Of a stretch of 64,000 nucleotides of DNA, positions 2,165 through 48,054 are shown piece by piece. Position numbers and translations under genes: made by a program. The stretch's first letter is position 1. Every line of letters begins with the position of its first letter. Under the pieces are notes generated by a model. It did not search any database and was not told where the DNA came from. It saw only the letters and a program-made list of their open reading frames with translations. The stretch covers positions 31,130,401-31,194,400 of the forward strand of contig CM120641.1 of assembly GCA_051362555.1 (NCBI GenBank). The letters are read 5' to 3'. Source of the DNA: Lingula anatina. Its lineage: Eukaryota; Animalia; Brachiopoda.

Positions 2165-2220
2165 TAAGATCCCACTTAGTTTAATATATATTCAAACTGA
2201 AAAGGGTTAATGTCGAAATT

Positions 2221-2295
2221 TAAGGGTGAAACGGCGTTGGACGGAGACTTTGCTGCCTTGGCGGAGGACTGCGCTCTCTAAGTGCTTTTCTAGTT
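2221..2295 (+). mobile_element. 3' end of Helentron-associated (HINE-like) element, family C
   Basis: GCCTTGGCGGAGGACTGCGCTCTCTAAGTGCTTTTCTAGTT; the same end occurs at ~58200-58258. Confidence 0.65.
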
Positions 2296-2344
2296 AGGTC
2301 ATGTAATAAATAAAAATGAAATAAGACCAGATGAGAAAAAGGAC

Positions 2345-2662
2345 GTGTTAATGTCACCACCAATATTGGTATATCCAGATATGTTTTGCAAGTTAACATT
2401 AACAACGGAAGCACCTACTTCTGCTATATGTTATATTTTAGGTCAAAAGAATGACAATAATCATGATAGGGTTATTGTGTTTGGAGGGAGATCTTTAAAC
2501 AATGTGGAAAAGAACTACACAATTCACGAGTTAGAATATTTATCAGTAATTGAAGGGATAAAGCAATTTCTTGGTTGCAAAAGGTTAAACATACATCTGG
2601 CAGGCTTATCAGATGGTCATTAAAATTACAAGGCCTAGATTTTGAAATAATTCACAAACCTA
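2345..2662 (+). pseudogene. pol: Gypsy pol remnant (RT connection/RNase H)
   Basis: LMSPPILVYPD...ICYILGQ...VIVFGGRSLNNVEKNYTIHELEYLSVIEGIKQF, then in a shifted frame RLIRWSLKLQGLDFEIIHKP. Confidence 0.85.
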
Positions 2663-2910
2663 TTAATAAGACGTTACAAGGAAGACAAAAAAAAAACGTA
2701 GAAATTAAAGATGAGGATGCTATAATCTATTAAGAGAAGAGTTTACGTATAAAATTTCAAATGACTAGAGATAACAGACACAATAAATAAAATGAAAAAG
2801 GTATGCCAAAAAAAAAAAAAAAGGAAAATGTATAATTTTGGGAATACCAGCCATGCAGCTTAACTGAACCCTAAATGATATCCGGATATCTGTTTTGCCT
2901 ATCTATTCTA

Positions 2911-2938
2911 TCTCTTATGTTTCTTCTCTTTTTCTTAG
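2911..2938 (+). promoter_or_regulatory. Putative env splice acceptor
   Basis: Polypyrimidine tract TTTCTTCTCTTTTTCTTAG directly upstream of the env frame that carries the signal peptide. Confidence 0.55.
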
Positions 2939-5306
2939 ATGAGGATAAGTTGAGCAGCATGCATTGTAAACCAAGGGTATTGACCTTCAGAAGAATGGCT
3001 CTATGGTTTCTCGCGACCATTAGCGTTGTGACAGCTTCTACAACAAAGACGGAGCAGTGCATAAATTATGGTGTTGAGTTCATACCGTTCTCTGATGTAT
3101 TGTTTAATGTAGGCAATTGGTCTCATTCCTTTGAGTTAAAATTAAATTGATGTAATACCAACAAGGTTGACGCTTTGTCCAGATGGACAGATTGGTGACA
3201 ATAAGATAATTAATCCACTTTGTAAAATATGCATGGATAGATGATGCAATACGCACTTTATCGACATTAAAGAATCAAACAATACGTGACTTAAGATTCA
3301 CCCTCAAGACAATATTATATATGATGCCACGAATTAAGTTGCGAAGTATTAAATCGAAAACCAGAAGTAAAAGATCATTGTTACCAACAGGGAATTTATT
3401 TAAAATGCTGTTTGGAGTTTCTAGTGAGTCAGATGTTATGAATTTAAGAAATTATGTTGACAGTTTAAAGAAGGAGACAGTTAATCTGTTTACTAAGCAA
3501 GAGCATCAAATGTCCTTGTTTATCACCACAGTAGACAGTAGAATATATGGAAAACATGAAATCTGCCATTGCAGAAAACCATCAAATTGCAAAGAAATTA
3601 AGTTTTGATTTGAACATTTATGCTAAAAATAGTGAATTAGCAGTGGTTATGTCAAGATTATTTGCACATAAGGAGATGGCGAATTTTCAATTATTATTTT
3701 AATTTCAAAATTTATTAATAGCATGCATTCAGCTGACAAAAGGACAATAGTCATCATTTTAGTTCCACCAGAAGAATTAGGTAGGGTGCTTACCAGAATT
3801 AAAGACAAGTTACGTAAGATGCCAATCCCAATGAAGCTTATTCACTCTAATCCGAGATCTTATTTCCATCATGCTCAATTCACATACGGTTTGTACAAAC
3901 GTTCATTGTATATAACTCTTCAAATCCCCGTAGCATCTAATCCACATGTTTTGAAAGTGTATGAAGTAATTACATATCCAGTTCCGCTTAATCAATCCAC
4001 AAATCACGCATCTCAAATCCTCTACCTTCCCAAATATTTTGCAATTACAAAAGATAGGCAACATTATGCTATTCCTGCGTAATTTACTTGGAGACATTGC
4101 AAAGGTAGCCATTTTAAACTTTGCGTTATAATATCCCACTAATGTCTGCAACTCAGCCAGACTGTACTCTTACACTGTTTTTTAGAGATTTCAGATGAAA
4201 TTCATCTGCTTTGCAATTTTCGATTCATTCACAATGCAATCAAAACACAGATAAGAGATGTTTTGATGAGTCAGTTACTTTTAGTTAACATAACTGACAT
4301 TACCCTGAAATGCCCTAAAACGTCAACCTCTTTAAGTGGCTGTCATTATTGTGTCATTCAAATTCCTTGCTTTTGCAGTTTGAACTTAGACGGTTTTTAT
4401 CTCCCAACCCGAGTGGCAAGTTGTCAAAACAACACTGAGATAACAAAGCTACATCCTATTAATTTAGGTTTGTTGCAATACTTTTATTCACCAATGCAAG
4501 TTGCCAAAATCGGAAGCAACAATTTATTTAGTGAACTTTTAGGTTTGAAATTGAATGTTCTTCAGTTATTTCAACATAATTTTTCCCATTTCCTTGCAAA
4601 AGATTCAGTTGATCATTTGAGCTTACAAAAAATGGCTCAAGCAGCAAAAAGTCAGGAGCAAATCTATTCTATGGCAGATGCTATTCTAGCAGACGAAATA
4701 TTTCATTCGGATGATTCTTCTCAAATACTGGTTTGGATTTCAATAGGGTTGTCAGGCTTATTGCTCGTGATAATAATTGGCCTAGGTATCAGGGTCAGGC
4801 AATTGGCATTAATAGTGGCTTTGCTGAAAAAAGCACGTGGAAATGATATAGTTCCTACTATGCCGTATTGGTTATTAGATAGCACAACAAAAACAAATGA
4901 TAAGCTGAAGGAACTGGTTATCATGGATTCAATGAAATTTCCTATTTTAATAATGCAAATTGTAATTACCATTATCTTTTTGATTTTCCTTGTGGAACAA
5001 ATCAAGAGAAATTTTTTTAAATCTAAGAGAAATACTCTGGCTTTAGAGATTTCCAACAATGAACAATGTATATCATTGCCTATCAGAAAGCTGTCACTAT
5101 GTCCAAAGTACTGGGTTTTTCAAAGTCACCAATCATACTTTGATATTTTAAAGGTTGAAGGTACCTACAGTCCACACCTAACAATAGATTGGCATTGTCT
5201 GCAAATTACAAACATTATAACTAATGAAATCGTTATTTTGGAACGAGCTATCCCATTGTCCATGTTCACAGCTTTTAAACTCAAAAAATTACTCAAGAGT
5301 GTATAA
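2939..5306 (+). pseudogene. env: F-type (class I fusion-like) envelope glycoprotein, disrupted by stops and frameshifts
   Basis: Signal-like MALWFLATISVVTAS; INYGVEF...WSHSFEL; furin site RSKR followed by fusion-peptide-like SLLPTGNLFKMLFGVSSESDV; Cys-rich CHYCVIQIPCFC; N-glycosylation sequons (NQS, NIT, NNT, NFS); TM ILVWISIGLSGLLLVIIIGLGI; second hydrophobic segment plus a ~100-aa tail. Confidence 0.8.
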
Positions 5307-6353
5307 TATGCATTTTTGCGCATTAAACAAGCTAATGCACTTGTCTATATTCAGTTTGAACCATTTGATCACAATGCAGATTAATTTTGTATCCAAGTTG
5401 AATTTGACTTGACTTGCTACATGTCTATAATTAACAAAATGCATTGATCTTTGCGAGGGGACTTTTGGTGTAAGAGGGTGTGTGTACTATCACAGCATTT
5501 TAATGACTCTATGATTGAGTTTTTCTCATTATTACTTCAATGATTTAAGAAACTGATCTATGCACATGTATTATTATTATTGAGAGTGTGCCAGACACAC
5601 AGAACTAACAGGTTACCTAAGTCCTGATTTTTTTTGTAATCATTATGTACTATTTTATGAATTATGATAACATGATTATTTATCTCTTACATATGACTTA
5701 TTAATAATCATTATATTTTGTGTTAATCATGATCATTATTATTAGCATGATGTATTTTACTTACTTTACAATGTTATGAATAATAATGTTTTTTAAACAA
5801 TTATGATTTTGTAAATATGTATCTTATGATTTTTTAAAAAAATTATTTGATTTTGCAGAATCTGGCGAACTTGTTCATCACATTTACATTGATGACAGAA
5901 CTGTAACCTTGTCATTTAAGCTTTTTTAGAACTTACGTAAGCATTCTGTATGTATAAATGAATTATACTTCAAACAACAAAGAGAACCGAATTTTCAGAT
6001 AAGTTTTCATCTGATTTGATAAATTGTGTATTTTGTGGAAGGTTTGATTACCTAGACGAGAAGTTGGACTTTATGAAGTTAATTAGTTGTGCTCATTATT
6101 TGAAGATTATATGGAATATGTGTTGCATCAAATACCATTAGAATTTGGTAATTGGAATTTTAAATACATTGAGCATTAATGCATGCAGCATAGATTTTTG
6201 TAATGGATCTCTTAATACATCGCGAAAGCATGATTAGTTTTGTTAATGTACGAATTGGATATTATTTAGTTTTTGCTTAAAAAAATGAAAAAAAGGAGTG
6301 TATGTTGTAAAGTTTACGAATTCGAGGACAAATTCTTTTGAAGAAGGGGTGTA

Positions 6354-6820
6354 TGTTGTAAAGTGAATGACTTAGACTTTCGCTAATTACAGTTAACAAT
6401 TAAAACAGAATCATATGTGTAAAGGGATAGGCAGTTATTGAGTGCAAGTTAAATTTCTTTAAGTGTCAACAAGTGTAGAGATTGTTCTCAAAGTATAAAA
6501 GGATGGAACATTTCAAAGTCACATATAGTTTGATTTGATTGGTTAATTTTTCAATAGATTTGCACATTTCTAACACGAGTAAAACACATGCAAACTCGAG
6601 ATGGACAAGGTCCAAGCTTGAGTAATTCGAATAATATTTTAAATATTTAAACTTGTCTCTCTGAAATTACCTAATAAAGAAATATTGAATGGTGTTTTGT
6701 AACATGAGAATAGAAAATTCTTTGGAAAATAGAGTATAAGTACTGGTGAAATTGTGTGAAAAATTGAAACGGTGAATAAATGTTTGAAAGCTCCAGATTG
6801 TCGTTATTGTCACTATAATA
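6354..6820 (+). repeat. 3' LTR of the env-bearing Gypsy
   Basis: Follows the PPT. Starts TGTTGTAAAGTGA and ends TCACTATAATA (decayed inverted terminus). Contains TATAAAA (~6494) and AATAAA. The right end is approximate because there is no second LTR to compare. Confidence 0.6.
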
Positions 6821-7016
6821 TTACTGCTGATGTAACGTGAGGAAGCAAATACAACTCAGATATTATCTTTCTTATTATTTATTTAACTACTGTCCAGTTG
6901 TTCTCCCCATTTACATTATGCGCAGTTGTATAAATATCATAAGAGCATGTCAATCAACTAAAGTTACTCTACTAAGCACTTCCCATTCTTATTCACTGCA
7001 TGCTGTCACTAACTAA

Positions 7017-7241
7017 GGATGTATTCCCAGAGATTTAGATCGATCCAGAGATTAAGATTTAGATCGACCTAACTCCCAGGGGGTTCACGCTAAATTGCAG
7101 TCAGCCGAGCGCGCACCATAGTTAATTACCCCCTTACAGTTTTCAATAGGCAGGACAGACGCTTAAGCTGGCTAAGCTGACAGTAATCTAGTGAGACTCC
7201 CCACAGGGATAGATCAATCTAAAATCTATGGAAATGAGGTC
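7017..7241 (+). mobile_element. TWA-targeting MITE, copy 2
   Basis: TAA TSD on both sides; homologous to the other copies. Confidence 0.9.
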
Positions 7242-7690
7242 TAACATTCTAATGAGGCTTTGCGTGGCCACTGCAGCATGATCCACATTGTGTGACGCTG
7301 GTTGTGAGATGATGAAGAATGATGAAGAATCTGCATGAGTGCTATACTCTGGTAGTTGACACACTCCAAGGACCGATATGGTGATATGAACAGTACTGCC
7401 CTCTCTATCCAACTCGTTAATGTATGGGCAGGGGATGGACAAGGCTCTCTCTCTCTCTCTCAGTCCATAGGCAGAACACTGTAGACCCATACCTGCGTGC
7501 AGAGTATTCATATGCCATACACTTTAATTAAGATATGCCCAAGTCTCATTCACCTGAACTTCTTTTTTTAGAGTCACTTACATGTAGGTTATCTGTACCG
7601 GGCAGGTGTGTTATACAGTATAATTTATGTGCAACGCGTATGTTTTAACATCAGACACTTTTCTACATTTTATTTTTTATTTAACACTAA

Positions 7691-21434: not shown

Positions 21435-22011
21435 GTGTGCAGGAAGCATACAAGAAGGTATGCAAAAAGTACACAGCAGGTGTGCAAGAAGTACGCAGGA
21501 GGTGTGCAAAAAGTATGCAGAAGGTGTGCAAGAAGTACATAGGAGGTGTGCAAGAAGTGAGCAGGAGGTGTGCAAATAGTATGCAGAAGGTGTGCAAGAA
21601 ATATGCAGAAGGTGTACAAGAATTAAGTGTGCTGGTTGTGGTGTTGGGGGTGTGCAGGAAGTGTACAGGAGATGTGCAAGGAGTGTGCAGAAGGTGCATA
21701 TTTTACCATGAAAATGAGGCGTGCTGCGCATGCGCAGAAACCCTTACTGTGAATGTGCTGCGCATACACTAAGGGCGCATTCCCATAGATTTTAGATCGA
21801 TCTATCCCCTTGGGGAGTCTCACTAGATTACTGTCAGATAATCCAGATTAAATGTCCCTCCCGCCTACTACAAGCTGTAAGGGGGTAATTAACTTCCGTG
21901 CGCAGTCGGCTGACTGCAATTTAGCGTGAACCCCCAGGGTGTTAGGTCGATCTAAATCTCTGGTAATGCCCTGTTAAACAGTGTGCGGGAAGCTTAAAAT
22001 TTTGCTAAGGG
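21435..22011. mobile_element. Right end of a CACTA/CMC-type element with ~11-bp subterminal tandem repeats
   Basis: GTGTGCA(A/G)GAA array at 21435-21700; terminus AAAATTTTGCTAAGGG. MITE copy 4 is nested inside. Confidence 0.55.
21773..21973 (-). mobile_element. TWA-targeting MITE, copy 4 (variant subfamily)
   Basis: Flanked by TAA/TTA; shares the CTGGATTATCTGAC variant with copy 3. Confidence 0.85.
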
Positions 22012-22682
22012 AAGTGTATGAAATAATTAATGTTGTCATCTTTTTGTGTAATTGTATTTATCAGCACCTTTGCAATTTGAATGGGAATTACTATTTGATA
22101 TGTCACCATTTAGGGTCTGGGGGAGCCAGATAGCAACCATGTTTCACTGGCTCCTTACTGGGTTATATTACAAATTAAAGTAACTGATTGCAAATTAAGA
22201 TATGGGCAGATATTGAATGACCATGAAATCTTGTTTTAAAAATTCACCTATGTGGCGTCATTGGCATATCAGTAACTACAGAAATTGAACCTCTTTACCA
22301 AGTACTAACTGATAAAGAGGGGTCAAAATGAAGGCCAGTATAATGAATGTATAAGTGATTGGGTGTTGCAATTTAATTATCCAATTGTATCATATTAAGT
22401 TGCTCTTTCCAGACTGATGGAAACAGAAAATTTAGGTCTAACATTTGCCTAATTAGTTTTTGTTTATTTTCATTATTCACAGTTTGGCATATTTAAGTTG
22501 TGATTTAATTTGCATTTACATGGGCCTCTAGTCCTGTGCTGATGTAACTACATTTTCTAATATCCACAACACATTTACTTAATTTCATTTATTAGAAACA
22601 GGTTATCATGTTGTTGTTAAACATTGGGTAACAATACAATCTGAATGATGATGATGATGAAATAAACATTGATACATTGTAC

Positions 22683-23009
22683 TGTTATGGTTCCTAATGA
22701 TGAATATTGCAGCTTTCAGTAACTAGGGTTACAGACAAATACTATCGGTCAAGCTTCTAGTGACCCCAACCCTCTGCCAGCAGTTGTCCATTAAAAAGCA
22801 CTAGCTCTCACTAGTGTAGTGTAAACAAGCTTGACAGCAGTGATCCTTTTGATCACTTCCCAGCAGACACACATTGTATATATTTCAGCACACTTAGAAA
22901 TAAAGTTAGTTGTTGTAGTTAAGTTTTTCTTGGAGTTGTTCTATGCGATTCTCCTCTCACACTGGTGTTATAATTAACATCTATATTGAAGAACACAGAA
23001 ACTATTTCA
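22683..23009 (+). repeat. 5' LTR
   Basis: Matches 30343-30662 with 7 substitutions and 3 indels by manual count. Confidence 0.95.
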
Positions 23010-23022
23010 TGGTGTCAGAAGT
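23010..23022 (+). promoter_or_regulatory. Primer binding site (tRNA-Leu type)
   Basis: TGGTGTCAGAAGT immediately after the 5' LTR, complementary to the 3' end of tRNA-Leu (...ACTTCTGACACCA). Confidence 0.8.
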
Positions 23023-23090
23023 ACGTGACTGTGTTTAATAACAATACAGTGAGCCAACGCTGATAACCAGTTGATTAGAAGACTTTCCAC

Positions 23091-24122
23091 ATGGAGCTGG
23101 GAGCTTTACTAGTACCTGCCATGAACTGGCATGCTACCGATGCAGTTCAGGAGTACAAGAAGTTCAAACAGATATGCGAGTTATAATTTGACGATCCACT
23201 AAAGAACAAATCTAAGTCTGAAAAGATTGCGTACCTCCAGATATAGGCTGGAGAGACTGGATGAGACCTAGTAAGCACATGGAACTTGACTGCCATGGGG
23301 ATGAATCTAAGGAATTAAAAACCTACTTTGACAAATTTGAAGAATTTGTTAAGCCTAAAAGCAATTTTAGACTAGCCAGATTTAATCTGTGGACCCTTAC
23401 GCAAGGTAATGGGGAAACTGTAGATCAATTCTTTAAGTGAATTTGTTCTCTGGTCAGCGAGTGCAAGTTTACCTAACCAGATGAACAAATACTTGACACG
23501 ATCATTTTTGGATGCAAATCAGCCCGCACACAGTCCAAATTACTGGAATTGGGTGAAACTCTGTCATTGGACAAGGCGATCGACATTGCAAGAACTCAGG
23601 AAGCAACCTCGCAGCAACTCACAGACATCAGTCCACACGCCCAGGTCCATGCAGTCAAGCACAACAAACCATTTCGCCCTAAACCTACATTTAAAGGGAC
23701 ACATAAGAAGAGAGAAACTTCTACCATGGCCTCAAAGTGCCACCCCACAATGGATAATCAGTGCAATAGCTGTGGAACAAAACATGATAGTAGTAAAAGA
23801 AAGCACAGGCCCAGCATACGGGTCCACATGCTTTGCCTGTGGGAAACTTAACCACTGGAGGAAGTGCTGCCGCTCCGAGCACAAGCAGTCCACAATTCAT
23901 CGTGGAAACAGGCCACACAGACACATCGTCACCCTCAAGCAGCAAATGCATAGAGTGCATGCCTGCCGCGAAGACGACTGTGAGCCACAAGAGAGCAATG
24001 AGCTATATTTAAGCCCAATAAACATGGGCAGCATTGAAAGCAAGTGTGCTTTCATTAACCTGAAAATCAGCTCTGAGCAAAATAGTATGACTTTTCCGTG
24101 AAAAGTTGATACTGGCGCGCAG
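23091..24122 (+). pseudogene. gag: gag and start of protease
   Basis: PAMNWHATDAVQEYKKFKQICEL...PKSNFRLARF; zinc knuckle CFACGKLNHWRKCC; protease motif KVDTGAQ, cut by the DIRS insertion. Has stops and frameshifts. Confidence 0.85.
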
Positions 24123-25359
24123 CTCAGCGTCATTGCGCCGTTTCTCAGCAAAGCAAACGCGGAATTACAAGCTGCATGAAATTAATATTTCTGCAGTGTT
24201 TTAAGTTTTTTGAGTGTTTAAGCATGTCTGCTGACATACTGTTAATACAGTGATCAGTGGTTAAACACCCATTTATGCAATTTATCGCAATAAATGCACG
24301 AATTCGTGCTAGCTACTGTACTCGTGTGTTGGGAGTAGCGTTTACAGGCTGTTACAGGCACTGTTCTGTGGCTGCATCTGCGCACATTGTTACTGCGCTT
24401 CAATTAATATGCGCAAAAGTGTACTGCGCAGTAAAAGTATATTAAGCGTGGTAAAAGTTTTATACAGTGACACCGACAAACATGGCGGATAAAAATTCCG
24501 AATGTAATAATCAGCCCGAAAATTCGGGTTCAAAAAGTAGTAAGGTTATCGTTAGAGAGTCAAAACCAAAACAAAAAAACTGACAAGGAACTTATCAGAG
24601 ACGTTTGTTCACCGGACTCCCCCATTACTGATTGGTTATTTGGCGATGATTTTGCCGGGGTTGTGAAAGGTATCAATGAAACCAACAAGGTAGCCACAAA
24701 AGTGGGAAACCGTAAAGATTACCATGGGCGTAATCGCGCAGCATATAGGCCAAGAGGTTTTCAAAAGTACACACCTTCAAAAAACGGCTACAGAAATTTC
24801 AAGAAATCAAGGCCAAATCACGCAGGCAAATCCAAGCGGGATTAGAGAGAAAAAATGAAGCACCTAAAGAGGTCACTATTAATTGGTCATTATATATTGA
24901 TGCTTTAAAAGATAAATTGGCCACTGAGATAGCAAATTTTACTGCAGCTAGTTTACAAAAGTGCAGAAAGTTTTGGCCAAATCTTACATCAGATAAGTAT
25001 ATACTGAATACTGTTTCATATGGTATCAGTGTTGAAATAGACGAATCAACAGAACAATCAAGAATTCCTCAGACTTATGCTTTCAATAAAGCAGAATCTG
25101 ATATAATTCGTACTGAAATCCATCAACTTTTAGAGAAAAAAGTGATACAAAAGGTCAAACATTGTGCAGGTGAATTTATTTCCAATATTTTCTTAAGAGA
25201 GAAAAAAGATGGAAAGTTCAGATTGATTTTAAATCTGAGGAAACTTAATGCTTCTGTTGTATATCATCACTTTAAGATGACTAGTTTGCAGTCAGCCATT
25301 AATCTTATGACACCTCAGTGTTTTATGTCAACCATTGATTGGAAAGATGCTTATTATTG

Positions 25360-27537
25360 TATAACACGTATATATATAACACATATCTTTATTCCTCAGA
25401 CTGGTGTACACAGCTCAAGCCCAGTTCTTATTTTGCTTGAGTTTGGGATACAAGGTATACTTTTATATAGAAATACTACCATCACCACTGTCTCCATATG
25501 ATAGGCTTTGGACTATACACCACATACATGTATAAACCCAGTACAGCTACACATAGGGAGAAAGTTTATATAATTTTATGCATGTAGTTCTAAATCTAGT
25601 TCCATGAATTTTGATTTCCCCCCATCGCAAACCAAACACGAAAGGGAAGACACCTCTGGCCACCTGTGCCAGGTCACTATTGTCCACCCACCTCGTTGGA
25701 ATCTTATTTTTATCTCCCCAGATCTAGCTACCTATAACCTATATGAAAATGTATGCCAGAAAAGGCATGGGGGGGGGGGGATTAGTAAAAGAAAGGTTCT
25801 GGTTATGATACACCTTTAGGGCTCGTTTAAATTCGTGCCCCGAATTTAATGTAAGATAAAAATGCATTAAAACCATGACCATAATTTGCCAATATGCCTT
25901 ATAATAATTACTGGTCAAGAAAACACCTGTCAAGTTACTCTATAAACTCAGTCATTCTGTTAATTTTTTTAATTACAGGTTATTTAAAACACTTCTCATT
26001 ATTATTCAAAAATTAAGTTTAATCTTGAGATACACACATGTAAGCATACTTGAACCATAAGATAACCTTACATGTAAGATAAGTGAAGCGTCATAATGTG
26101 AGTTACAATATATATAATTACAAATAAGTTATTCTACTTTTATAGGTTCTATTTCATTTATCATTATTACTTTAATACATCCTCTAGTTCTAAATGGAAG
26201 CTTATAAAAATTGTAACAAACACATTAAATACCAAATCTTGTATTTCAATCAAAATGATAAAACGTGTACATGCATATAGTTACCTGTAATAATAATATC
26301 AAACTGGGTATTAATATAATTCTACCACAAATATCTGCGTATAGTGTTCCTTGTCTTAAAACAAATTCACACACACACACACACTCAAAAGCAAACTCAA
26401 ACTTTCCGCAAGTAGACACTGCTAGTCATTGTTTTGCACATAATTTATCTTTTTGCATATTTGACCTGGGTCATTATCCCCTCTTTGCGTAATATGGCAG
26501 CTTGACTACAAAATTTTCCCACATATATCTACTTTAGATACATAAGCCTGTTGTGATGGAGAATTATTAAATGTGCGTCAAAGGGTGTTTTTATTATCTT
26601 GTGAAGCTTTATGTACTGCCAGAAAGAGATTTCAATAGTTGTTGGTAGTTTAAGTAACAAATTAGGATTAGCATGATTTTGTGTGACAGTTACATCTCCC
26701 CACTCAATGGTAACTTTGGGCCACAATGACTTAATAATGATCAAATTCCGTACTACAAGTCTACCTTCCATGCTGATTTCTTTTGGACATGATTTTACCT
26801 TGGATAGAGGGAGCAGGAGACTCCCCTTGGTACTTGAAACTTCTTGAAACTACTGTTCTACAGTAACTGCTGCCGTAGCCTGTTGTTCTTCCTCCCTTGT
26901 AGGAGTTTGTAGTACTACTCCTTGGGCCTGAGGTGCAGTCTCCTGCATCAATGGTGTTCCTGTGCTTCCTGTCTCTCTCCCTGTACTTTCTGCTGCTGCT
27001 CTATTTCTCGGGGATACTCTTTTCATCATTTTTTTTTTTTTTTTTTTTTTTGCTGCCCTTGTGGTTCTCCGCCAATATAACAGGTATATATATATAATAC
27101 GTATCTTTATTCCTCAGACTGGTGTACACAGCTCAAGCCCAGTTCTTATTTTGCTTGAGTTTGGGATACAAGGTATACTTTTATATAGAAATACTACCAC
27201 CACCACTGTCTCCATAGGATAGGCTTTGGACTATACACCACATATAAACCCAGTACAGCTACACATAGGGAGAAAGTTTATGTAATTTTATGCATGTAGT
27301 TCTAAATCTAGTTCCATGAATTTTGATATCCCCCCATCGCAAACCAAACACGAAAGGGAAGACACCTCTGGCCACCTGTGCCAGCTGGTCACTATTGCCC
27401 ACCCACCTCGTTGGAATCTTATTTTTATCTCCCCAGATCTACATGTAGCTACCTATAACCTATATGAAAATGTATGCCAGAAAAGGCATGGGGGGGGGGG
27501 GGGGGAGATTGGTAAAAGAAAGGTTCTGGTTATGATA
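25360..27537 (-). mobile_element. Non-autonomous 2.2-kb mini-LTR retroelement derived from an env-bearing Gypsy
   Basis: LTRs at 25360-25810 and 27076-27537. ATTG TSD (25356-25359, 27538-27541). PBS-like TGGCGGAGAAC on the minus strand. Internal gag-start-like and env-tail remnants. Confidence 0.9.
26529..26822 (-). CDS. Stop-free remnant of the env C-terminal domain
   Basis: LLLPLSKVKSCPK...WPKVTIEW...LPTTIEISFWQYIKLHKIIK aligns by eye with ISLPIRKLSLCPK...PHLTIDW...IPLSMFTAFKLKKLLK at 5070-5300. Confidence 0.6.
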   Translation of the reverse strand, partial: SLLLPLSKVKSCPKEISMEGRLVVRNLIIIKSLWPKVTIEWGDVTVTQNHANPNLLLKLPTTIEISFWQYIKLHKIIKTPFDAHLIILHHNRLMYLK

Positions 27538-28211
27538 ATTGTCTGGCAGTTTGTGATGAACACAAAAAACTGTTAAGATTTCAATTTGATGGAAACTTGT
27601 ATGAATATCAGGTTTTACCAAATGGCTTGGCGAGTGGACCACGTGTTTTTACTAAAGTTACTAAACCAATTTTTTCCTATTTGAGAAAATTAGATAACAT
27701 GAATTGTCCATACATTGATGACAGTCTCTTGGTTAGGGAATCTTTGCAAGATTGCAGAGAGAATGTGATGCAAACAGTTAAAGTTTCTGCTCAAGCAGGG
27801 TTTACTGTGCATCCAACTAAGTCTGTTTTAGAACCAACGCAAAAGTTGGATTTTTTAGGCTTTACATTGGATTCTGTAAAAATGAGAGTGTCCTCAAACA
27901 AGAGACAAGCAGATAAAATATTTTCTGCATGCACCGACCTCTTACAACAGGACTGTATTACTATTCTGCAACTGGCAAAAGTAGTAGGATTATTGGTAGC
28001 ATCTTTTCCTGGTGTACTGTAGAATATGGGCCTCTTTATTATAGGTCACTGGATATGAGAAAAAATCAAGCTTTAAAAGCTAGTAAAGGAGATTTTCAAG
28101 CAAAATTGCAGATTAACAGTGATGATGCCTTGAAACTAGACTTGACTTGGTGGATAGAAAATATCCATTCAAGTTTTAAGTTGATTTCACATGGAAACCC
28201 TTCATTAGTTA

Positions 28212-28388
28212 TTCTTCCTCCCTTGTAGGAGTTTGTAGTACTACTCCTTGGGCCTGAGGTGCAGTCTCCTGCATCAGTGGTGTTCCTGTGCTTCCTGTCT
28301 CTCTCCCTGTACTTTCTGCTGCTGCTCTATTTCTCGGGGATACTCTTTTCATCATTTTTTTTTTTTTTTTTTTTTTTTGCTGCCCTTG
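28212..28388 (+). repeat. Templated insertion copied from 26886-27061
   Basis: Near-identical sequence, including the poly-T, sitting at the junction of the DIRS RT and the Mag RT. Confidence 0.9.
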
Positions 28389-30135
28389 AAACAGAAATTT
28401 GCATCTCCTCATGGATTGGGCCAGAAAAATAGGCATCCACTTCAATCCAGATAAAATGCGCATCAGATGCAGCGAAATTTCATTCTTTGGAAACATACTC
28501 AGTTCAGAGGGTCTACAACCTGATCCGAAGAAAGTGGAATCCATCCACAGCATGGATCCGTCCAGCAACCTTGCCGATCATCAAACGTTTCTTGGCCTAA
28601 CCCAGTACCTCAGCAGGTTCATACCCAACCTGGCTTCCATTTCAGCAGTACTGTGGGACTTAACTAAGAGCAAGAATGAGTTGGTTTGGAGCCCAGAGCA
28701 TCACACTGCAGTAGATAAAATCAAATCTGTCATCACCTCACCAGAAACATTGCAACATTTTGACAGTAGCAAACCTGTAACGATTCATGCAGGTTGACGC
28801 ATCGCAGCGTGGCCTCGGCGCCACTTTGATGCAGAACAATCGCCCTGTCGTATACAGGAGCAAATTACTAACAGAAACCGAGATGCGGTATTCAAACATA
28901 GCGCGTGAAATGCTTGCAGTTGTACATGGATTAGAGAAGTTCCATTAATATGCTTAGTAGTAAAGTCACTGCTGAAAGTGATCATAAGCCTCTCCAATCC
29001 ATATTCCAGAAACATGTGATGCTCTTTCCAGACTGTCAAAATGCGAAGGTGACACCATTCAAGGTGTAGATGTGACAGTGCATGAGATCGACATGCAGCT
29101 AAATGCAAGCCCCACCAGACTAAAGCAGATCCGAGAAAAACGTCCAAGGACAAGACGCTTCACTCTCTTCGAAACTTCATCACAAACAGATGGCCAAACC
29201 CTAGGTCAGAGTATCCATCGCACCTCCACGACTATTGGAATTACCGTGATGGATTGTCAGTATTTGATGACCTTATTCTAAAAGGAACTAGAATCCTGAT
29301 CCCAACAACGCTTCAAGCAGCGGTGTTAGAGCAGTTACACTATGCTCATCAAGGAGCTGAAAAGTGCAAACTTCGTGCCAAAGGATCTGTATTTTGGGTC
29401 AACATTAATCGAGACATCGAAAACATGGTTAAAGCATGTGCACCATGCCAACACAACCAGAAGGCAAACATCAAACAACCGCTAATGCCACACGACGTAC
29501 CACAAAAACCATGGCACACACTGGGAGCAGACTTATTTTTCATTGACAATGACAGTTACTTGCTCGTATCTGACTACTACAGCAAATTTCCAGTAGTCAG
29601 AAAGCTGAATAATTTGCGGTCCAACACTACCATTGCTCACATGAAATCAATCTTTGAAGAATTCGGAATTCCGAGAAAGCTTATCACTGGAAATGACACT
29701 CAGTTTACTTCGGCTGAATTCCAGAAATTTAGCCACGATTATGACTTCGAGCATGTCCAAACAAGCCCCCACTACTCACAGGCCAATGGATTTATTGAAT
29801 GAGCTGTTCAAACTGTTAAAAATCTGCTGATTAAATGCAAGGAAGCTAACACAGATCCTCATATGGCCATGTTGTGCCTTAAGGTGCTTTCTCAGAGATT
29901 TAGATCGATCTAAAGATTAAGTTTTAGATCGACCTAACTCCCTTGGGGTTCACGCTAAATTGCAGTCAGCCGAGCGGGCACCATAGTTAATTACCCCCTT
30001 ACAGCTTTTAGTAGGCGGGACAGACGCTTAAGCCAGCCAAGCTGACAGTAATCTAGTGAGACTCCCCACAGGGATAGATCGATCTAAAAATCTATGGAAA
30101 TGGGGAGTTAGATGCACACCATTAGATCACAACAT
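28389..30135 (+). pseudogene. pol: Mag pol: RT C-terminus, RNase H, integrase
   Basis: GLQPDPKKV...FLGLTQYLSRFIPNLA; VDASQRGLGATLMQ; RYSNIAREMLAVVHGLEKFH; HHCC (LHYAHQG...CAPC); PWHTLGADLF; SPHYSQANG; AMLCL|RCTPLD interrupted by MITE copy 5. Confidence 0.9.
29882..30107 (+). mobile_element. TWA-targeting MITE, copy 5 (inside integrase)
   Basis: TTA TSD; removal restores MLCLRCTPLDH. Confidence 0.9.
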
Positions 30136-30327
30136 ATGCATGAATAATGTCATATAGCTCTACTAGCAAGGATCATTCTATCACTGTATTTACTTTATTT
30201 TACTCACTTAAACTACATGCTCCACATGTGAGACTTCTCTTGCATAAGATGTTACTCAAGGAATCAAAAAGACATTTATTCTGTGTTGCCACTATCAACC
30301 CTTCCTTTAGCACCGATTATCTTTTCT

Positions 30328-30662
30328 AAAGGAAGGAGGGGATGTTATGGTTCTTAATGATGAATATTGCAGCTTTCAGTAACTAGGGTTACAGACAAAT
30401 ACTATGGTCAAGCTTCTAGTGACCCCAACCCTCTGCCAGCAGTTGTCCATTAAAAAGCACTCTTACTAGTGTAGTGTAAACAAGCTTGACAGCAGTGATC
30501 CTTCTGATCACTTCCCAGCAGACACACATTGTATATATTTCAGCACACTTAGAAATAAAGTTAGTTGTTGTAGTTAAGTTCTTCTTGGAGTTGTTCTATG
30601 CGATTCTCCTCTCACACTGGTGTTAATTAACATCTATATCGAAGAACATAGAAACCATTTCA
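30328..30662 (+). repeat. PPT (30328-30342) and 3' LTR (30343-30662)
   Basis: AAAGGAAGGAGGGGA followed by TGTTATGG...CATTTCA. Confidence 0.95.
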
Positions 30663-32679
30663 GTACAAAACATTTTGTGCACTTCCATTTTGTGTAATTC
30701 ACCCACAGTATAGCAACCATACACTTTTCATATCAATGTCTCCACCACATGTTATATATCTGTCTGTACACATGACAGCTTTGCTGCTTTGTCACTGATG
30801 TACAATATGTTCTTAGAAAACTCATCTTCCTCCTTAAAAAAGTCCAGGAAAGATACCAGTACACTGGCTTGATGATTGAGGGCTGTATGTGGTACAGACC
30901 AACAACAACAACTTTAAACAAAAATTCACCAGTGCTGGTCATGGCAATAGAAAGTTTGGCAAGTGATTAAATGTGGGCTCCAGTAATCTACAGATAAACT
31001 TAACATTTAAGTCAGAGCCAAATTAAAAAGACATTTTGTGAAAGTGTTCCTTAAAACATGAGTTTTTATTATGGCGACTTAAAAATTAATTTAGCAAAGG
31101 GTTTCAATGTTAAAACTAAATGGTTTATAAAACACTTAAATACCAGTAGGTTAAAAAGACTTTAAAATTATGGAGAGGGCAATTTATGAATGATTTCTTA
31201 AAATGATTGGTCTCAACTATTGGAACTGTGAAAGATTATTATCAAGAAATTAATATATTATCGCCTCAAATTGTGTACAAAATTAGATTTCTTGGACGCC
31301 TTTTAACTTTTTGTGAAATTTTTTGAATGATCAACATTCAGCAGATGTGTTTACATTCCCAGGACGAAAGTTTTACAAGTGGTAGTTAAAATGCTATTCA
31401 ATTTACCAATGGAATAATTGATGTAGTAGCCAATAGTGACCTTTTTCAGCATGGGGCAGTACATATGTGGCAGTGAGTACAATAAAATACTGTCCACATA
31501 TTCAAGCAATTAATTCATTTGCTTTGAGCCTGCACCTTAATACTTTGGCTTAAACACTATCCTATAGAATAGACTTTAGGTTATGCTAGATTCCTGGGCA
31601 ACTCCAAAAAGAGCTCTTGCCTTTCCATAGTGGATATGTCTTTCTTTCCTTTTTATAAATAATTTTTTCAAAATTGTTTTAAAGACTTTTTGCTACCACT
31701 GAGCTGGACAAAATGTATTATGAAAGATTTTCCATATCAAAGGTACATATCAAATTTATGATTTCATACACCAAGACTGACTGTAGGACATGGGTCAATG
31801 CCAAATTATATTACCATATGATGCAAATGGTGGTAGTAGTGAATTCTTGGTCAGAGTTAATAGCCAGTCTACACCAGAAAAGGGGTGCATATGTATATCT
31901 TTAAATTAATTTTTTTGTTGAATTAGCATCAAAAGACAGGAAGAGATTGACTTACGCAATGCCAAACACAAGGATTTACATTGTACCAGCATTAAGACAC
32001 TAAATTTATGTCTGATACTCAAACAAACTTAAATAACGTAATTAGATGTTACTGTGCAAATTGATGCCTTAACAGTGTGATATGGATATTGAACATTCTG
32101 ACCTAACAAGTAATTAACATGGGTGGGGGGGGGGGGGGGGGGGGGGGTTAAATGCGTATTTAGCTTTTTGTGTTTTTAATAATTAAACATCCAATGTTGC
32201 AAAACTATTCAACATATAAGACTGTATAAAATTATCCATATGGTTATGGTTACCCATAGCAGTTTTTGTGCTCATTTCAGTGATATGCCATTGTATTGTT
32301 TCATATTGCCATTTAGCTTATTTTGATAGCTGTGTTGATTCTAGAGAAAGGCTCTGTCCAAAAAAGAAGATAGTAGGGCACTGCATTTGAACAATTTCTC
32401 CAAAATTAAGGTAGGCAAGATTTTGATTTCTCTACAGCATTATGGGGAAACTTCCACAAAAAGTAAGTAGGGTTTCACAATGATATTTCGGGGAATTTCC
32501 TCAAAAAAATCAGTTGGTCACGAATTTTCTAATTTTTGGCCATGGTTTTGAGGAAATCCCTCCCCCCCAACACCCCCCCACCCCCAAAAAAATCTAAATC
32601 CAATGCTTTGATTTTTAATTTTTGACCTCTTTTAAAGTGCAATTCATGCCATTTTACACAGAATTAAATAAATTTTCCC

Positions 32680-39477: not shown

Positions 39478-41170
39478 AACAAGGCAGCAAATAAAAGCCG
39501 TCAAATGCAAAGAAAACAATAATGAAAAACAAGGCAGCAAAACTGTCAAATGTACAGACAACCAGAAAAAAAAATAAGTCACTCAGTTTTCCTTTTAGAG
39601 CACTTAAGTGGCAGTACATAAAATATTTTTATCAGTTTTGATGCAGTGTTTTACAAAACAGCTTATAATCACCATCAATTTTACTTTATGAACTGTAGGT
39701 AGCATAGATATCTAAAATGTGACTAGCAAGGTCTTCCGGCCCATGAAAATTCAAAGTCACCCATTAAAAATGCCAATAAGAACACATTACTGAAATGTGT
39801 TACTTTCATTTTCAACACTTATTACACAATAACCAATTTACTTTTATTTTTAAAAGATCAAGTAAAACAAGGCATCAAAGCAGACAAAAAGCAGAAAATA
39901 TTGATACACAAAATAGGATACTGTCAATACTGATGCAAGTATGTTATATTATAATAAACACATTATGTTTAACAGCAATGTCAACACCAAACTTTAATTA
40001 TGCACAACAGGTAAAACAGTTGTGAGTCATAACATGGCCTTAAATCCATAGGATTCTGTGCAATTTCACTCAGCCACCGACTACCTCTGCTCAGATGCCA
40101 TACAAAAAGGGTATTATGGGCAGTATAGGCACCGTACAGGCATCACATTTCAAACGTAATTTAGGCTTAACTAGCATAAGGGTGTATTCCCAGAGATTTA
40201 GATCGATCCAGAGATTAAGATTTAGATTGACCTAACTCCCTGGGGGTTCACGCTAAATTGCAGTCAGTCGAGCGCACACCATAGTTAATTACCCCCTTAC
40301 AGCTTTCAGTAGGTGGGACAGACGCTAAAGCTGGCTAAGCTGACAGTAATCTAGTGAGACTTCCCACAGGGATAGAATGATCTTAAATCTATGGAAATGG
40401 GGTGTAAGACTTTGGGTCCACGAAAGTTCAAGTTCAAACTTTGAAAATGCCAGAATGAACAAAATGAAAATTTCACAAAAAAAAAAAAGTTAAACTAAAA
40501 GAAATCAGACTGGTTTTTCAACTGAAGCTGTATTTACTTATGTTTCTTTTCATTGAGTTTGAGAAGAGAAAGTGACTTGGTTTCCCTATATGGTAGCTGT
40601 GGTACATGTAGCAGTGCCCAAAATAGGTTTTTCCTCAATTTCGATACAATATATATTAGATGTTTTTAAACACCAGAATCAACACCAAACTTTAATTATG
40701 AACTGCAGGTAACAAAGATATTTAGAAAATGTGACTAGCAAAGGTCTTCAGATCTTTGGAAGTTCAAAGTCACACCTTGAAAATGCCAAAATGTAAGCAT
40801 GAGTTAACAGTAATGAAATGAGTTTTTTTCCATTTTTACAAATACAAAATAACCAATTTACTCTCCTTTTTATATTAACAACTAAGCAAATTGCTGAAAT
40901 GTAAGATCATCAAAAGAACAACTTTCAAATAATATCTGAGATTCTGAAAATAGTTAATGATTGAATATGACAAACTGCCAAAATATGACATTATTTCCAT
41001 TTTTGACACTTAATTACACAATACACAATAACAGGTTTACCATCATTTTTATATAATCAACTAACAATACTTTAAGATGCAGAAAATTTCTAAAGAACAC
41101 TCTTATGTATCTAATTAGTTCAATACATAGACTGTTAACATGCATGAGCACTGAATCTGAGGAAAAACCA
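39478..41170 (-). mobile_element. Cluster of degraded HINE family A fragments
   Basis: Several 3' ends (39478, 39528, 39866) and internal homology to 33.6-34.7 kb in reverse orientation. Confidence 0.65.
40180..40404 (+). mobile_element. TWA-targeting MITE, copy 6
   Basis: TAA TSD on both sides. Confidence 0.9.
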
Positions 41171-44307: not shown

Positions 44308-47300
44308 AAGTAGTGTGGATAGGTCTTTTTGTATGTTTTTAAAGAGATATCAATAATTACATAGAAACATGTTACGCATCGGTATGAGAAATATTAGAGG
44401 ATTAGCAAAGAAACTTACTGATGAAAACTTTGTTGAGATGGTAGAAAATTTTGATATTTTCATATGTGTAGAAACTTTTAGTACCCTGAGATCAAAAATG
44501 GTCCTACCTAGTGGCTCACATGGCCACTTCTGCAAAATAAAAACAAAAAAGAAAACAAAAGGTCGCCCATCTGGCGGTATAGTTATATATTACAGAAAAC
44601 AATTTAGTGGTGCTCTTCATGTTATCTCTAGCAAAAGTGAGAATACCTTATGGATAAGGCTACCAGGACAGTGTTTTGGTCTCCAAAGAGACTTATTTGT
44701 GTGCGCAGTTTATGTTAAGCCAAAGAATGGGAGATTTGATGAAGCAACCTTTGACATCCTTGAGGAAGAAATAGTTCAGCATCAGTCAAATGGCATGATA
44801 TGCCTCATGGGTGATTTTAATGCTCGAACTGGTACACTCCCAGATTATATCAAAAATGATAACACACACGGTATCCCAGTGCCTGGTAGCCACCCCACAG
44901 ATATGCTCACTCCTGCTCGGAACAACTTAGACAGTATCATAAACTCCCAGGGAAGAACCCTTGTAGAATTATGCATTAGCAGCAATTTGAGAATACTGAA
45001 TGGAAGAGTGTTAGGAAATTCATTAGGGTACTACACATGTTACAATCAAAATGGCTGTAGTGCAGTGGATTATGCAGTTTTGAGTGATAAGTTAGTTGAT
45101 AGTGTAAAGTATTTCACTGTTCACCCAATTGACTATATCTCAGATCACTGTCTTCTAGATCTTACAATTGCAAGTAAGGGTTTCAAGGAGTCACCAAAAG
45201 TTATTCCCCTCCAAAAATACAAAGATCAGTACATCTGGGGCATCGACTCTGCAGATAAATTCCTCCGTGAACTGGAAAGTGAAAAAAACATAGAAGCCAT
45301 ATGTGAATTTCAAACTACCACCGTCCCAACTACTAAAGAGGGAGTAAATAAGGCATGTCAGTCTTTAACTAAAATCCTAGATGACACAGCTAGTGCATCA
45401 CTGCGTACAAAAAGAATGTCAAAGAAAAATGGTAATGAGAGAAAAAGGAATAAAAAGCAGCCCTGGTTTGACAATCAATGCATTGAAGTAAAAAGAAATA
45501 TCAAACACCTCGGGAGACTACTCCAAAAAAACCCGAATAATCACTTTATCTCTCACACTTATCATGAAGCTTGCAAAAAGTACAAGCAACTTTTGAAAAA
45601 GAAAAAACAAGAACATAAAGACAACCTCCTTGAAAAGCTTTTGAACATTGAAGAAAAGAATCCCAAAGAATTTTGGCAAATTATCAAAAAACTTAAGAAA
45701 GAAGAGGATCAGAACAACCTTATTGCCCCTGATGTATGGCACAATTACTTTCAACAACTGTGTGGTATCCCGCCTCTAGGTGACAATGACATTGATGATG
45801 AATTGAAAAAATATGAAGATTGCCCTGGAAATCCCAAACTAGATGACCCTATAACCATTCTGGAGGTCCAAAAAGCACTCAGAAAGCTAAAAAATGGCAA
45901 AGCACCTGGGGCAGATAGCATAAGAAATGAAATGCTTAAGACTGGGCAACCGTACTTACAGGGTATCTGGTGCGATGACTAAAATCTTTAACCTGGTCTT
46001 AAACTCTGGTGAGATCCCTGATGCTTGGAATTTAGGCATAGTTTTACCACTCTTTAAGTCTGGTGAGTGTTTGGATCCCTCAAATTACAGGGGCCTTTGT
46101 ATTACAAGCTGTTTGGGAAAGTTATTCAATTCCATTCTGGCAAATAGGCTAACTGACCTGATTGAAAAGGAAGGCAAACTTAGCGAAGAACAGGGTGGGT
46201 TCAGACCAAGTTACAGAACAACTGATCACATTTTCACTCTTAAATCAATTATTAACAGATATACTAGCCAAAATAGGAAGGTCTATGCATGTTTTAATGA
46301 TTTTAAAAAGGCATTTGATTCAGTGTGGCACAAAGGTCTGCTTCTCAAATTACAGAAACTTGGAATAGGAGGAAAATTTTACAATGTGATTAAACAAATG
46401 TACAAAAATACTAAATTAGGAATCTCCACAGGCAACAGTTATACCAAACCCTTTTTTGCTAAAATTGGAATCCGCCAAGGTGATAATCTAAGTCCAACAC
46501 TCTTCAATATATTTATAGACGACATAAAAGAATCCTTCCATACATGTAAAACCAAAGACAAGGTAGATGGCATCAACCACATACTTTATGCCGATGACCT
46601 AGTCCTACTGTCGAGAACAAAGGATGGACTGCAAAATCTTCTGAACAAACTAGAACAGTACTGTCAAAAGTGGAAGTTACACATAAATACAAAGAAAACA
46701 AAAATAATGGTGTTTAGCAAGAAGGGTAAACTTGACCATCAAACAAAATTTCACATTAATGATGAACCCATAGTAGAAGTAAAACAATACCCCTATTTGG
46801 GAATAGTTTTCTCCAACACTGGCTCGTTAAAGGAAGCAATCGAAAATTTGAAGAAAAAGGCCCTAAAAGCCCTGTTTTCCCTTAAAGCAGCACTTGCCTC
46901 TCAAAACATTTCCAAACCACTTTTGTGCATGAACTTATTTAACAAACTTATCAAACCAATTTTGCTTTATGGTTGTGAGGTCTGGTCACAGGAGGTATTT
47001 AAACAGAATAACATGTCTCTGAAGAAGATTAATAAAATGCCATTCGAACAGGTACACTTAAAGTTTTGCAAATGGATTCTAGGTCTAAGAAAGCATGCTA
47101 GCAATACCATGTCTAGAGCTGAGCTCGGCAGGTACCCTATTTTTCCAACTATAGCCAAACTTGTCCAAAGATATAGTCTTAGACTGGAACAACTGCCAAA
47201 TGATAGAATTGTAAAGCAAGTGTAGAATTGTAAAGCAAGTGTACAATCTTGAGCAAGATACAAAGGGAAACACATGGACAGAATCCATCCAATCTTTTCA

Positions 47301-48054
47301 CAATTGTTGGGGTTTCTCCGAAGATAACAACCCACCAAAGAAATTACATCAAATAGAAAACCTAGTAGAAAAATTGAACATAAAAATCGAAAAACTCTTT
47401 TGGCAGGAATTAAATAGTTCGACCTCAAACAAATTAAGGACATACAAAACAATTAAAAAATCTTATGAATGTGAAAATTACATCAAAATGAGTGTCTCCC
47501 CCTTAGATATCAAAACACTAGCAAAAATTAGACTAAGTGACCACGACCTAGCAATAGAAAGGGGCCGATACACAAACCCTAAAACTCCACTTGATGAGAG
47601 AAAATCTAAAGCTTGCAACTGTTTAGAGGATGAAACACATTTCCTCACAGAATGCACAAGATACACTGTTGAGAGGCAACGAATGCATGATGAACTACTG
47701 AAAATCAGTGTAGTGGGTCTAGATGACAGTGATCAGATATTGTCAATTCTCCTTAATCCACCCTGTCATAAAAGTCTCAAAGTAATAGCAGAATTTGTAA
47801 AGACTGCTGTTAAAATACATAGTTCACCTGAGATCTAGTATATCACAGCCACTTATTGTCAACAATGCTGTGAATAGCTTAATTAATTAATATTATAGCA
47901 TAATTTGCATTAACACATGTATAATTTAACATACTACATATGTAAACATATATAATTGTATATCCATATATATATTGTGTAAATATTGTAGTCTAGAGAG
48001 CCTGCAAATGTACTCACATCATTTAGTGCTCAATAAACTTATTACTTATTATTA
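44308..48054 (+). mobile_element. RTE-X-type non-LTR retrotransposon, 5'-truncated just upstream of ORF2
   Basis: APE + RT + C-terminal Cys/His motif; AATAAA and (TTA)n tail; TTATTG on both flanks. Confidence 0.9.
44369..47838 (+). pseudogene. ORF2: AP endonuclease-reverse transcriptase, two frameshifts
   Basis: NIRGL, GRPSGGI, MGDFNAR, SDH (APE); NYRGL, QGGFRP, DFKKAFDSV, GIRQGDNLSP, YADD (RT); RLSDHDLAIERGRY...EDETHFLTEC. Lesions: 7-bp insertion at 45959-45965 and 19-bp duplication at 47204-47241. Confidence 0.95.

Follow-up and report, generated by a model that had tools for sequence, protein, structure and literature searches.

A predicted matrix-like domain with its own membrane anchor follows the F-type fusogen in errantivirus env genes of Lingula anatina and bivalves

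The closest described relatives of the env studied here belong to F-type errantiviruses of the non-insect 'ancient' group (Ty3/gypsy), in which env likewise lies after pol, encodes a signal peptide, a furin site, a class I F ectodomain and a transmembrane helix (TM), and occurs in mollusc hosts. A Pol ending in a chromodomain has been reported for a cnidarian, mollusc and annelid clade (Chary and Hayashi, eLife 2026, PMC13524379), and the supplement of that paper records 17 ENV regions and no intact copy for Lingula anatina. The analyses in its main text deal only with the ectodomain between the signal peptide and the TM, and no description was found there of the part of about 190 amino acids after the first TM (TM1); the words 'matrix' and 'cytoplasmic' occur 0 times in the main text, as does 'matrix' in seven supplements.

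This part contains a domain that invites comparison with proteins of negative-strand RNA viruses. The matrix (M) proteins of Borna disease virus and of paramyxo-, pneumo- and filoviruses, as far as they are described in PMC3887258, resemble it in net basic charge and in the beta-rich fold and inner-leaflet position predicted for the env domain. They are soluble peripheral proteins encoded by a gene of their own, whereas the env domain is part of an LTR-element precursor with its own TM and, unlike Mononegavirales M, carries a conserved Cys/Cys/His set. The Aliusviridae have class I fusogens as glycoproteins (Viro3D, PMC12583693), and the available text of PMC11508223 lists for their genomes GP, NP and L, at times together with a hypothetical ORF, and names no matrix gene.

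The window, which is the whole 64-kb stretch of L. anatina DNA analysed here, holds two LTR elements with a copy of the domain. Element 1 consists of the following features.

2333..2569, plus strand: Pol remnant (RNase H) upstream of env; Pfam RT_RNaseH_2, E 4.5e-15
2995..4724, plus strand: F-type env ectodomain with frameshifts and stops; tblastn with the intact relatives P0004 and P0005, E 1e-75 and 2e-72
about 4725..4790, plus strand: TM1, the fusogen anchor; hydropathy 2.6
4791..4841, plus strand: predicted internal signal peptide with basic n-region, 8-residue h-region and c-region; from the family pattern
4842..4937, plus strand: short linker, predicted luminal and disordered; pLDDT <50 at model residues 59-72, Thr/Pro/Ser-rich across the family
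about 4938..4994, plus strand: TM2, the putative accessory-protein anchor, followed by basic residues; hydropathy 2.5-2.9
5019..5384, plus strand: beta-rich, matrix-like domain with a short tail; E 3e-31 with the profile over 5019-5348, model pLDDT 89.7, fold matches
6340..6351, plus strand: polypurine tract followed by TG, the likely start of the 3' LTR; from the sequence

Element 1 belongs among the F-type errantiviruses, the elements whose env ectodomains are surveyed in PMC13524379. Its env stands after the pol remnant and before the polypurine tract and TG, with a signal peptide at the start of the ectodomain and a furin-type RSKR at 3363-3374. The env family profile matched the PDB 'fusion protein' 9w4d (E 6.5e-19), and Pfam Baculo_F scored above its cut-off in four of the nine full-length relatives tested; R-x-K/R-R is present in 21 of 41 full-length relatives and R-x-x-R in 34. 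In a relative locus, L001, which covers only the end of Pol, a chromodomain-ended Pol lies directly before env, matching the clade reported in PMC13524379. The window shows neither RT nor integrase of element 1, the rest of pol being missing or decayed, and no partner LTR (blastn of 5300-7000 matched only itself). At the likely 3' LTR the first 15 bases occur twice, 51 nt apart, each time after a purine run (6299-6363).

A single ORF (4143-5306, plus strand, 387 aa) encodes TM1, a basic/hydrophobic segment, TM2 and the domain. The original prediction had the domain end at 5306; this has to be corrected, since a stop codon at 5304-5306 interrupts the domain and the frame continues as far as 5384, where it still matches the two final strands in relatives. 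The RefSeq model LOC106162084 (346 aa, L. anatina), annotated as an uncharacterized host protein, is the C-terminal part of this dead env (4266-5306) with one residue different. RNA depth over the env tail was 0-2 in four RNA runs (6-26% of each read), and no RNA dataset is listed as containing the sequence of the env stretch.

Element 2 lies on the minus strand.

27076..27537, minus strand: 5' LTR; 93% identity to 25360-25810 over 468 columns
26529..26849, minus strand: second copy of the matrix-like domain, lacking TM2; profile E 1e-22, ORF of 106 aa
25360..25810, minus strand: 3' LTR, paired with 27537-27076

Directly after its 5' LTR, at 27074, stands a PBS-like TGGCGGAG, a candidate by sequence. 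That the two window elements have a domain in common, as originally proposed, is confirmed: the domains of ORF 4143-5306 and ORF 26849-26529 align by blastp with 24% identity over 87 aa (E 3e-6), and their Smith-Waterman score of 84 was reached by 0 of 3000 shuffles (mean 27, maximum 69), the next best score among 1137 window segments being 41. A database-only profile, built from 149 database hits with the window copies and the seeds left out, detected both domains (E 3e-31 in element 1, 1e-22 in element 2) and nothing else in the window. The second element had been called unrelated, with entirely different LTRs and no evident nucleotide similarity. At the nucleotide level this holds, as no match >22 nt was found between 2201-6700 and 22001-31000; as to its nature it does not, for element 2 is an internally deleted element that belongs, like element 1, to this kind, though to another family. 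Full-length env proteins (29-33% identity) are among the best database matches of its domain. Only about 1.26 kb, including the domain, lies between its 93% identical LTRs, and element 2 is therefore a deletion derivative that kept the domain without TM2.

The deletion junction of element 2, where the domain meets the 5' part of the element, is crossed without mismatch by contigs from two DNA runs of two studies, either of which may be related to the source of the assembly. DNA reads over the domain are some two to five times as deep as over the adjoining stretches, and other contigs leave the window sequence at 26844 and 26563; further copies of this domain with other neighbours thus exist. 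No RNA was found over the second domain copy in two RNA runs, which, like the low depth over the env tail of element 1, fits dead copies. The two copies in the window are both broken, near-silent, dead remnants of such env genes.

Other repeats surround these elements. Positions 28208-28388 duplicate 26882-27061, in the 5' internal region of element 2, over 181 nt (98%), a sign of either a rearrangement or another partial copy. Abutting its 5' LTR is an RT fragment, DIRS-like by eye (27516-28228 and 24471-25501, plus strand; RVT_1, E 5e-12), with very high depth in one DNA run. Element 2 and the RT fragment are nested inside a plus-strand LTR element whose LTR pair (22683-23009 and 30343-30662, 96%) also encloses remnants of RNase H (28390-28797) and integrase (29086-29802). 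A dispersed MITE-like repeat of about 230 nt with internal inverted symmetry (1935-2168, 7013-7244, 21778-21959, 29878-30111, 40177-40407) collects RNA reads from other copies to depths in the hundreds, and 44357-47838 (plus strand) carries a non-LTR retrotransposon ORF2 with endonuclease and RT in three frames.

The env tail is a trait of a Ty3/gypsy family and not a quirk of the window copy. A four-sequence profile found the domain in 554 protein clusters (50% identity, E<=1e-3) among 1.84 billion representatives, and the best 150 of the 554 were examined; minus the twin of the window copy, these gave 149 hits for the analysis of context, of which 35 are short fragments that are uninformative in this respect. 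Among these best 150 of 554, TM2 precedes the domain in 111 of 114 hits with 40 or more upstream residues, TM1 in 73 of 77 with 115 or more, and all 52 with at least 250 have the env ectodomain. Two full-length relatives align over 95-98% of ORF 4143-5306, tail included, so that intact relatives do keep the domain. The order ectodomain, TM1, basic/hydrophobic/AxA segment, T/P-rich linker, TM2, domain and tail is family-wide. Two proteins are joined differently: the gene model P0005 fuses Gag to env, and in P0132 the N terminus of env runs straight into the matrix-like domain, a further deletion that has spared this domain.

Named carriers are the bivalves Mactra, Mya, Pinctada and Mytilus together with Lingula; most hits are nameless, the organism names of Mya, Pinctada and Mytilus coming from three of 30 clusters looked up and those of Mactra and Lingula from other matches. 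The tail could not originally be assigned to a named family, and in Pfam the domain lies outside every family, Bestrophin and DUF5453 appearing only as sub-threshold TM noise. A search of viral contigs gave no domain match, metagenome contigs gave one locus, and a word-based search with the deep alignment gave nothing, which carries little weight since it covered only proteins of 1804-5000 aa.

The domain is modelled as a single beta-rich unit of about 110 aa, and its closest solved fold is that of Borna disease virus M and of the paramyxo-, pneumo- and filovirus matrix proteins, at 9-16% identity. Sequence profiles run against the PDB did not find a matrix protein. In predicted viral structures the seven best domain matches are chu-like virus proteins of 1041-1230 aa (probability 0.98-1.00, E 0.003-0.04), bornavirus M takes ranks 9 and 11, and the chu-like E value improves to 3e-4 when the TM part is included in the model. 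A four-copy fold prediction for the domain of one relative scored 0.00, evidence for neither side; there the fold of the domain itself was uncertain and the alignment was unused. Based on these models, we predict for the domain the Mononegavirales matrix fold (Borna, measles and Ebola viruses) and infer homology. It seems quite unlikely to us that the domain is instead a conserved inward-facing module of separate ancestry, perhaps zinc-binding, that looks like a matrix protein merely through a common beta-sandwich and may dock Gag or recruit ESCRT: seven of the top 9 fold matches are mutually divergent matrix proteins, aligned over 73-98 residues on the expected domains, and the match agrees across two programs and two libraries. 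By prediction, then, the env domain works like M; we do not file it as a member of the Mononegavirales matrix proteins, as it follows a TM (111/114) and an ectodomain (52/52) among the best 150 of 554.

A 2H phosphoesterase-like immune antagonist of the Usb1 or rotavirus VP3 type, with one lobe per chain, was also considered. This reading is scarcely credible and was rejected on motifs, as just 7 of 135 sequences have H-x-S/T around the conserved His and the motif is wholly absent from 68 of 142 domains; the two-lobed enzymes are also twice as large as this domain of about 110 aa.

The domain carries a net positive charge in 137 of 154 sequences. Two Cys and one His are near-invariant within it, a further three Cys form a cluster in 35 of 103 tails, and together these residues may bind zinc, to judge from their conservation. 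Tails of 15 or more residues are present in 103 of 153 sequences. The motif [LIM]YPx[LIV] occurs in 25 of these 103 tails against 0.3 in shuffles, with 2 occurrences in 23,705 ectodomain residues, and P[TS]AP in 4 against 0.2; PPxY was not significant (4 against 0.7, shuffle maximum 5). YPXL and P[S/T]AP are described as late domains that recruit ESCRT (PMC5834213). With regard to particle release, the motifs in these 25 tails are indirect evidence. Both window copies lack a late motif of the LYPxL/PSAP type.

Topology was assessed on 79 sequences, namely 76 hits and three seeds, each with 125 or more upstream residues. The C-terminal side of TM2 is more positive than its N-terminal side in 79 of 79, and this positive-inside bias predicts that the domain faces the cytosol or the particle interior. 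A luminal or extracellular domain, for example a receptor-binding unit with a disulfide, would result if the two TMs formed a hairpin with no internal signal and with a cytosolic linker. The two conserved cysteines and the number of sequons in the domain, which is not depleted (36 against 28 expected), would suit such a hairpin; the charge bias speaks against it, late-type motifs make sense only in the cytosol and the best folds are internal matrix proteins, which together leave it very improbable. Sequon counts as such gave no discrimination between topologies.

With a cytosolic domain behind TM2, the chain would have to cross the membrane once more between TM1 and TM2, and an internal signal peptide would provide that passage. 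A K or R stands at the TM1 anchor in 76 of 79 sequences and is followed by about eight hydrophobic residues (+4..+11) and then by polar residues. The (-3,-1) rule is obeyed by 73% of the 79 at a distance of exactly 19 residues from the anchor, and a (-3,-1) site falls within +17 to +21 in 66 of 79, compared with 22-23 under two shuffling schemes; this interval was chosen after viewing the alignment, the sequences are related and small-residue-rich TM1 positions score as high, so that the signature, called from the n-/h-/c-region composition, is a pattern and not proof. In the window env the basic and hydrophobic segment ends in A-R-G, with candidate cleavage before 4842, at +16. This signal-peptidase-like site, originally noticed after TM1, lies three residues nearer the anchor than the family mode and falls outside the 66.

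This displaced site would fit an uncleaved, multi-pass env, as would an h-region of only about 8 residues, the AlphaFold model, which draws TM1 and the h-region as a single helix, and the paucity of sequons in the supposedly luminal linker (1 against 8.7 expected). In such an env the segment after TM1 would be a re-entrant or amphipathic helix, and the matrix-like domain would be the long cytoplasmic tail of the fusogen; the tails of bunyavirus Gn act as a matrix surrogate. We consider this unlikely, because a cytosolic domain after TM2 (79/79) forces the chain back across the membrane between TM1 and TM2, and because cleaved signals are marked by just such a narrow (-3,-1) peak, set at a constant distance after the basic and hydrophobic regions. 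From the sequence pattern, signal peptidase would cleave between TM1 and TM2.

We therefore favour, as reasonably probable when signal peptidase cleavage, a cytosolic matrix-fold domain and a budding role are taken jointly, a two-protein precursor that would yield a class I fusogen together with a membrane-anchored, inward-facing protein of predicted matrix fold, the latter likely to organise budding. TM1 would halt translocation, leaving the fusogen with almost no cytosolic tail. The roughly 20 residues after TM1 would then serve as an internal signal peptide and be cut, which would place the linker in the lumen and leave the second protein anchored by TM2 with its domain in the cytosol. There the domain may coat the inner leaflet as a matrix does, in a 1:1 ratio to the fusogen, and probably bridge the fusogen to the Gag capsid, with LYPxL and PSAP tails bringing in ESCRT for scission. 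The original prediction of an env polyprotein that includes a separate, conserved, membrane-anchored matrix-like protein is supported by the significant alignment, the retention of the domain in intact relatives and its absence from Pfam, to which the analysis adds the predicted Mononegavirales-like fold, the late motifs and the signal-peptide pattern, with cleavage and function still conditional; the cell-to-cell spread suggested alongside budding found no specific support.

Parts of this scheme have precedents. Signal peptidase splits the envelope precursors E2-6K-E1 of alphaviruses and Gn-Gc of bunyaviruses, and foamy virus budding depends on Env. As proposed for the env described here, internal signal sequences free several membrane proteins in such systems and the envelope side drives budding. 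To our knowledge, none of the alphavirus, bunyavirus and foamy virus precursors releases a matrix-fold protein or pairs one with a class I F protein.

The predicted models of the long Aliusviridae and chu-like glycoproteins are the best viral matches both to the domain and to the TM-plus-domain model. Shayang Fly Virus 1, an Ollusvirus (Aliusviridae), is among these chu-like viruses. The glycoproteins differ from our env in belonging to arthropod RNA viruses and in their length of 1040-1235 aa, and the comparison is one of predicted models. We tentatively raise the possibility, to which we give somewhat less than an even chance, that a class I F fusogen and a tethered, single-domain matrix released by signal peptidase form one cassette common to marine errantiviruses and Aliusviridae-type RNA viruses. 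If so, the missing matrix of the Aliusviridae-type viruses would be identified, whole envelope modules would appear to have been exchanged between negative-strand RNA viruses and LTR retrotransposons, and the tethered form would be a candidate for the ancestral state from which the free M proteins of Borna, measles and Ebola viruses arose. The small hypothetical ORF of Aliusviridae could be their matrix instead.

The literature searched, comprising titles and the starts of abstracts outside subscription journals and bioRxiv supplements, held no description of a matrix-fold domain in a retrotransposon env or in chu-like glycoproteins; within it, this would be the first Mononegavirales-type matrix fold in a retroelement. 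The env tail bears on the origin of errantivirus env, which is argued in PMC13524379 not to derive from baculoviruses, and suggests where the matrix may be located in chu-like viruses with no named matrix gene. The Discussion of the same paper calls the mechanism of errantivirus transmission elusive outside Drosophila. A matrix fold and ESCRT late motifs within env would offer a testable answer to how env-bearing Ty3/gypsy elements unite capsid and envelope at the membrane, namely that the envelope gene supplies its own budding scaffold.
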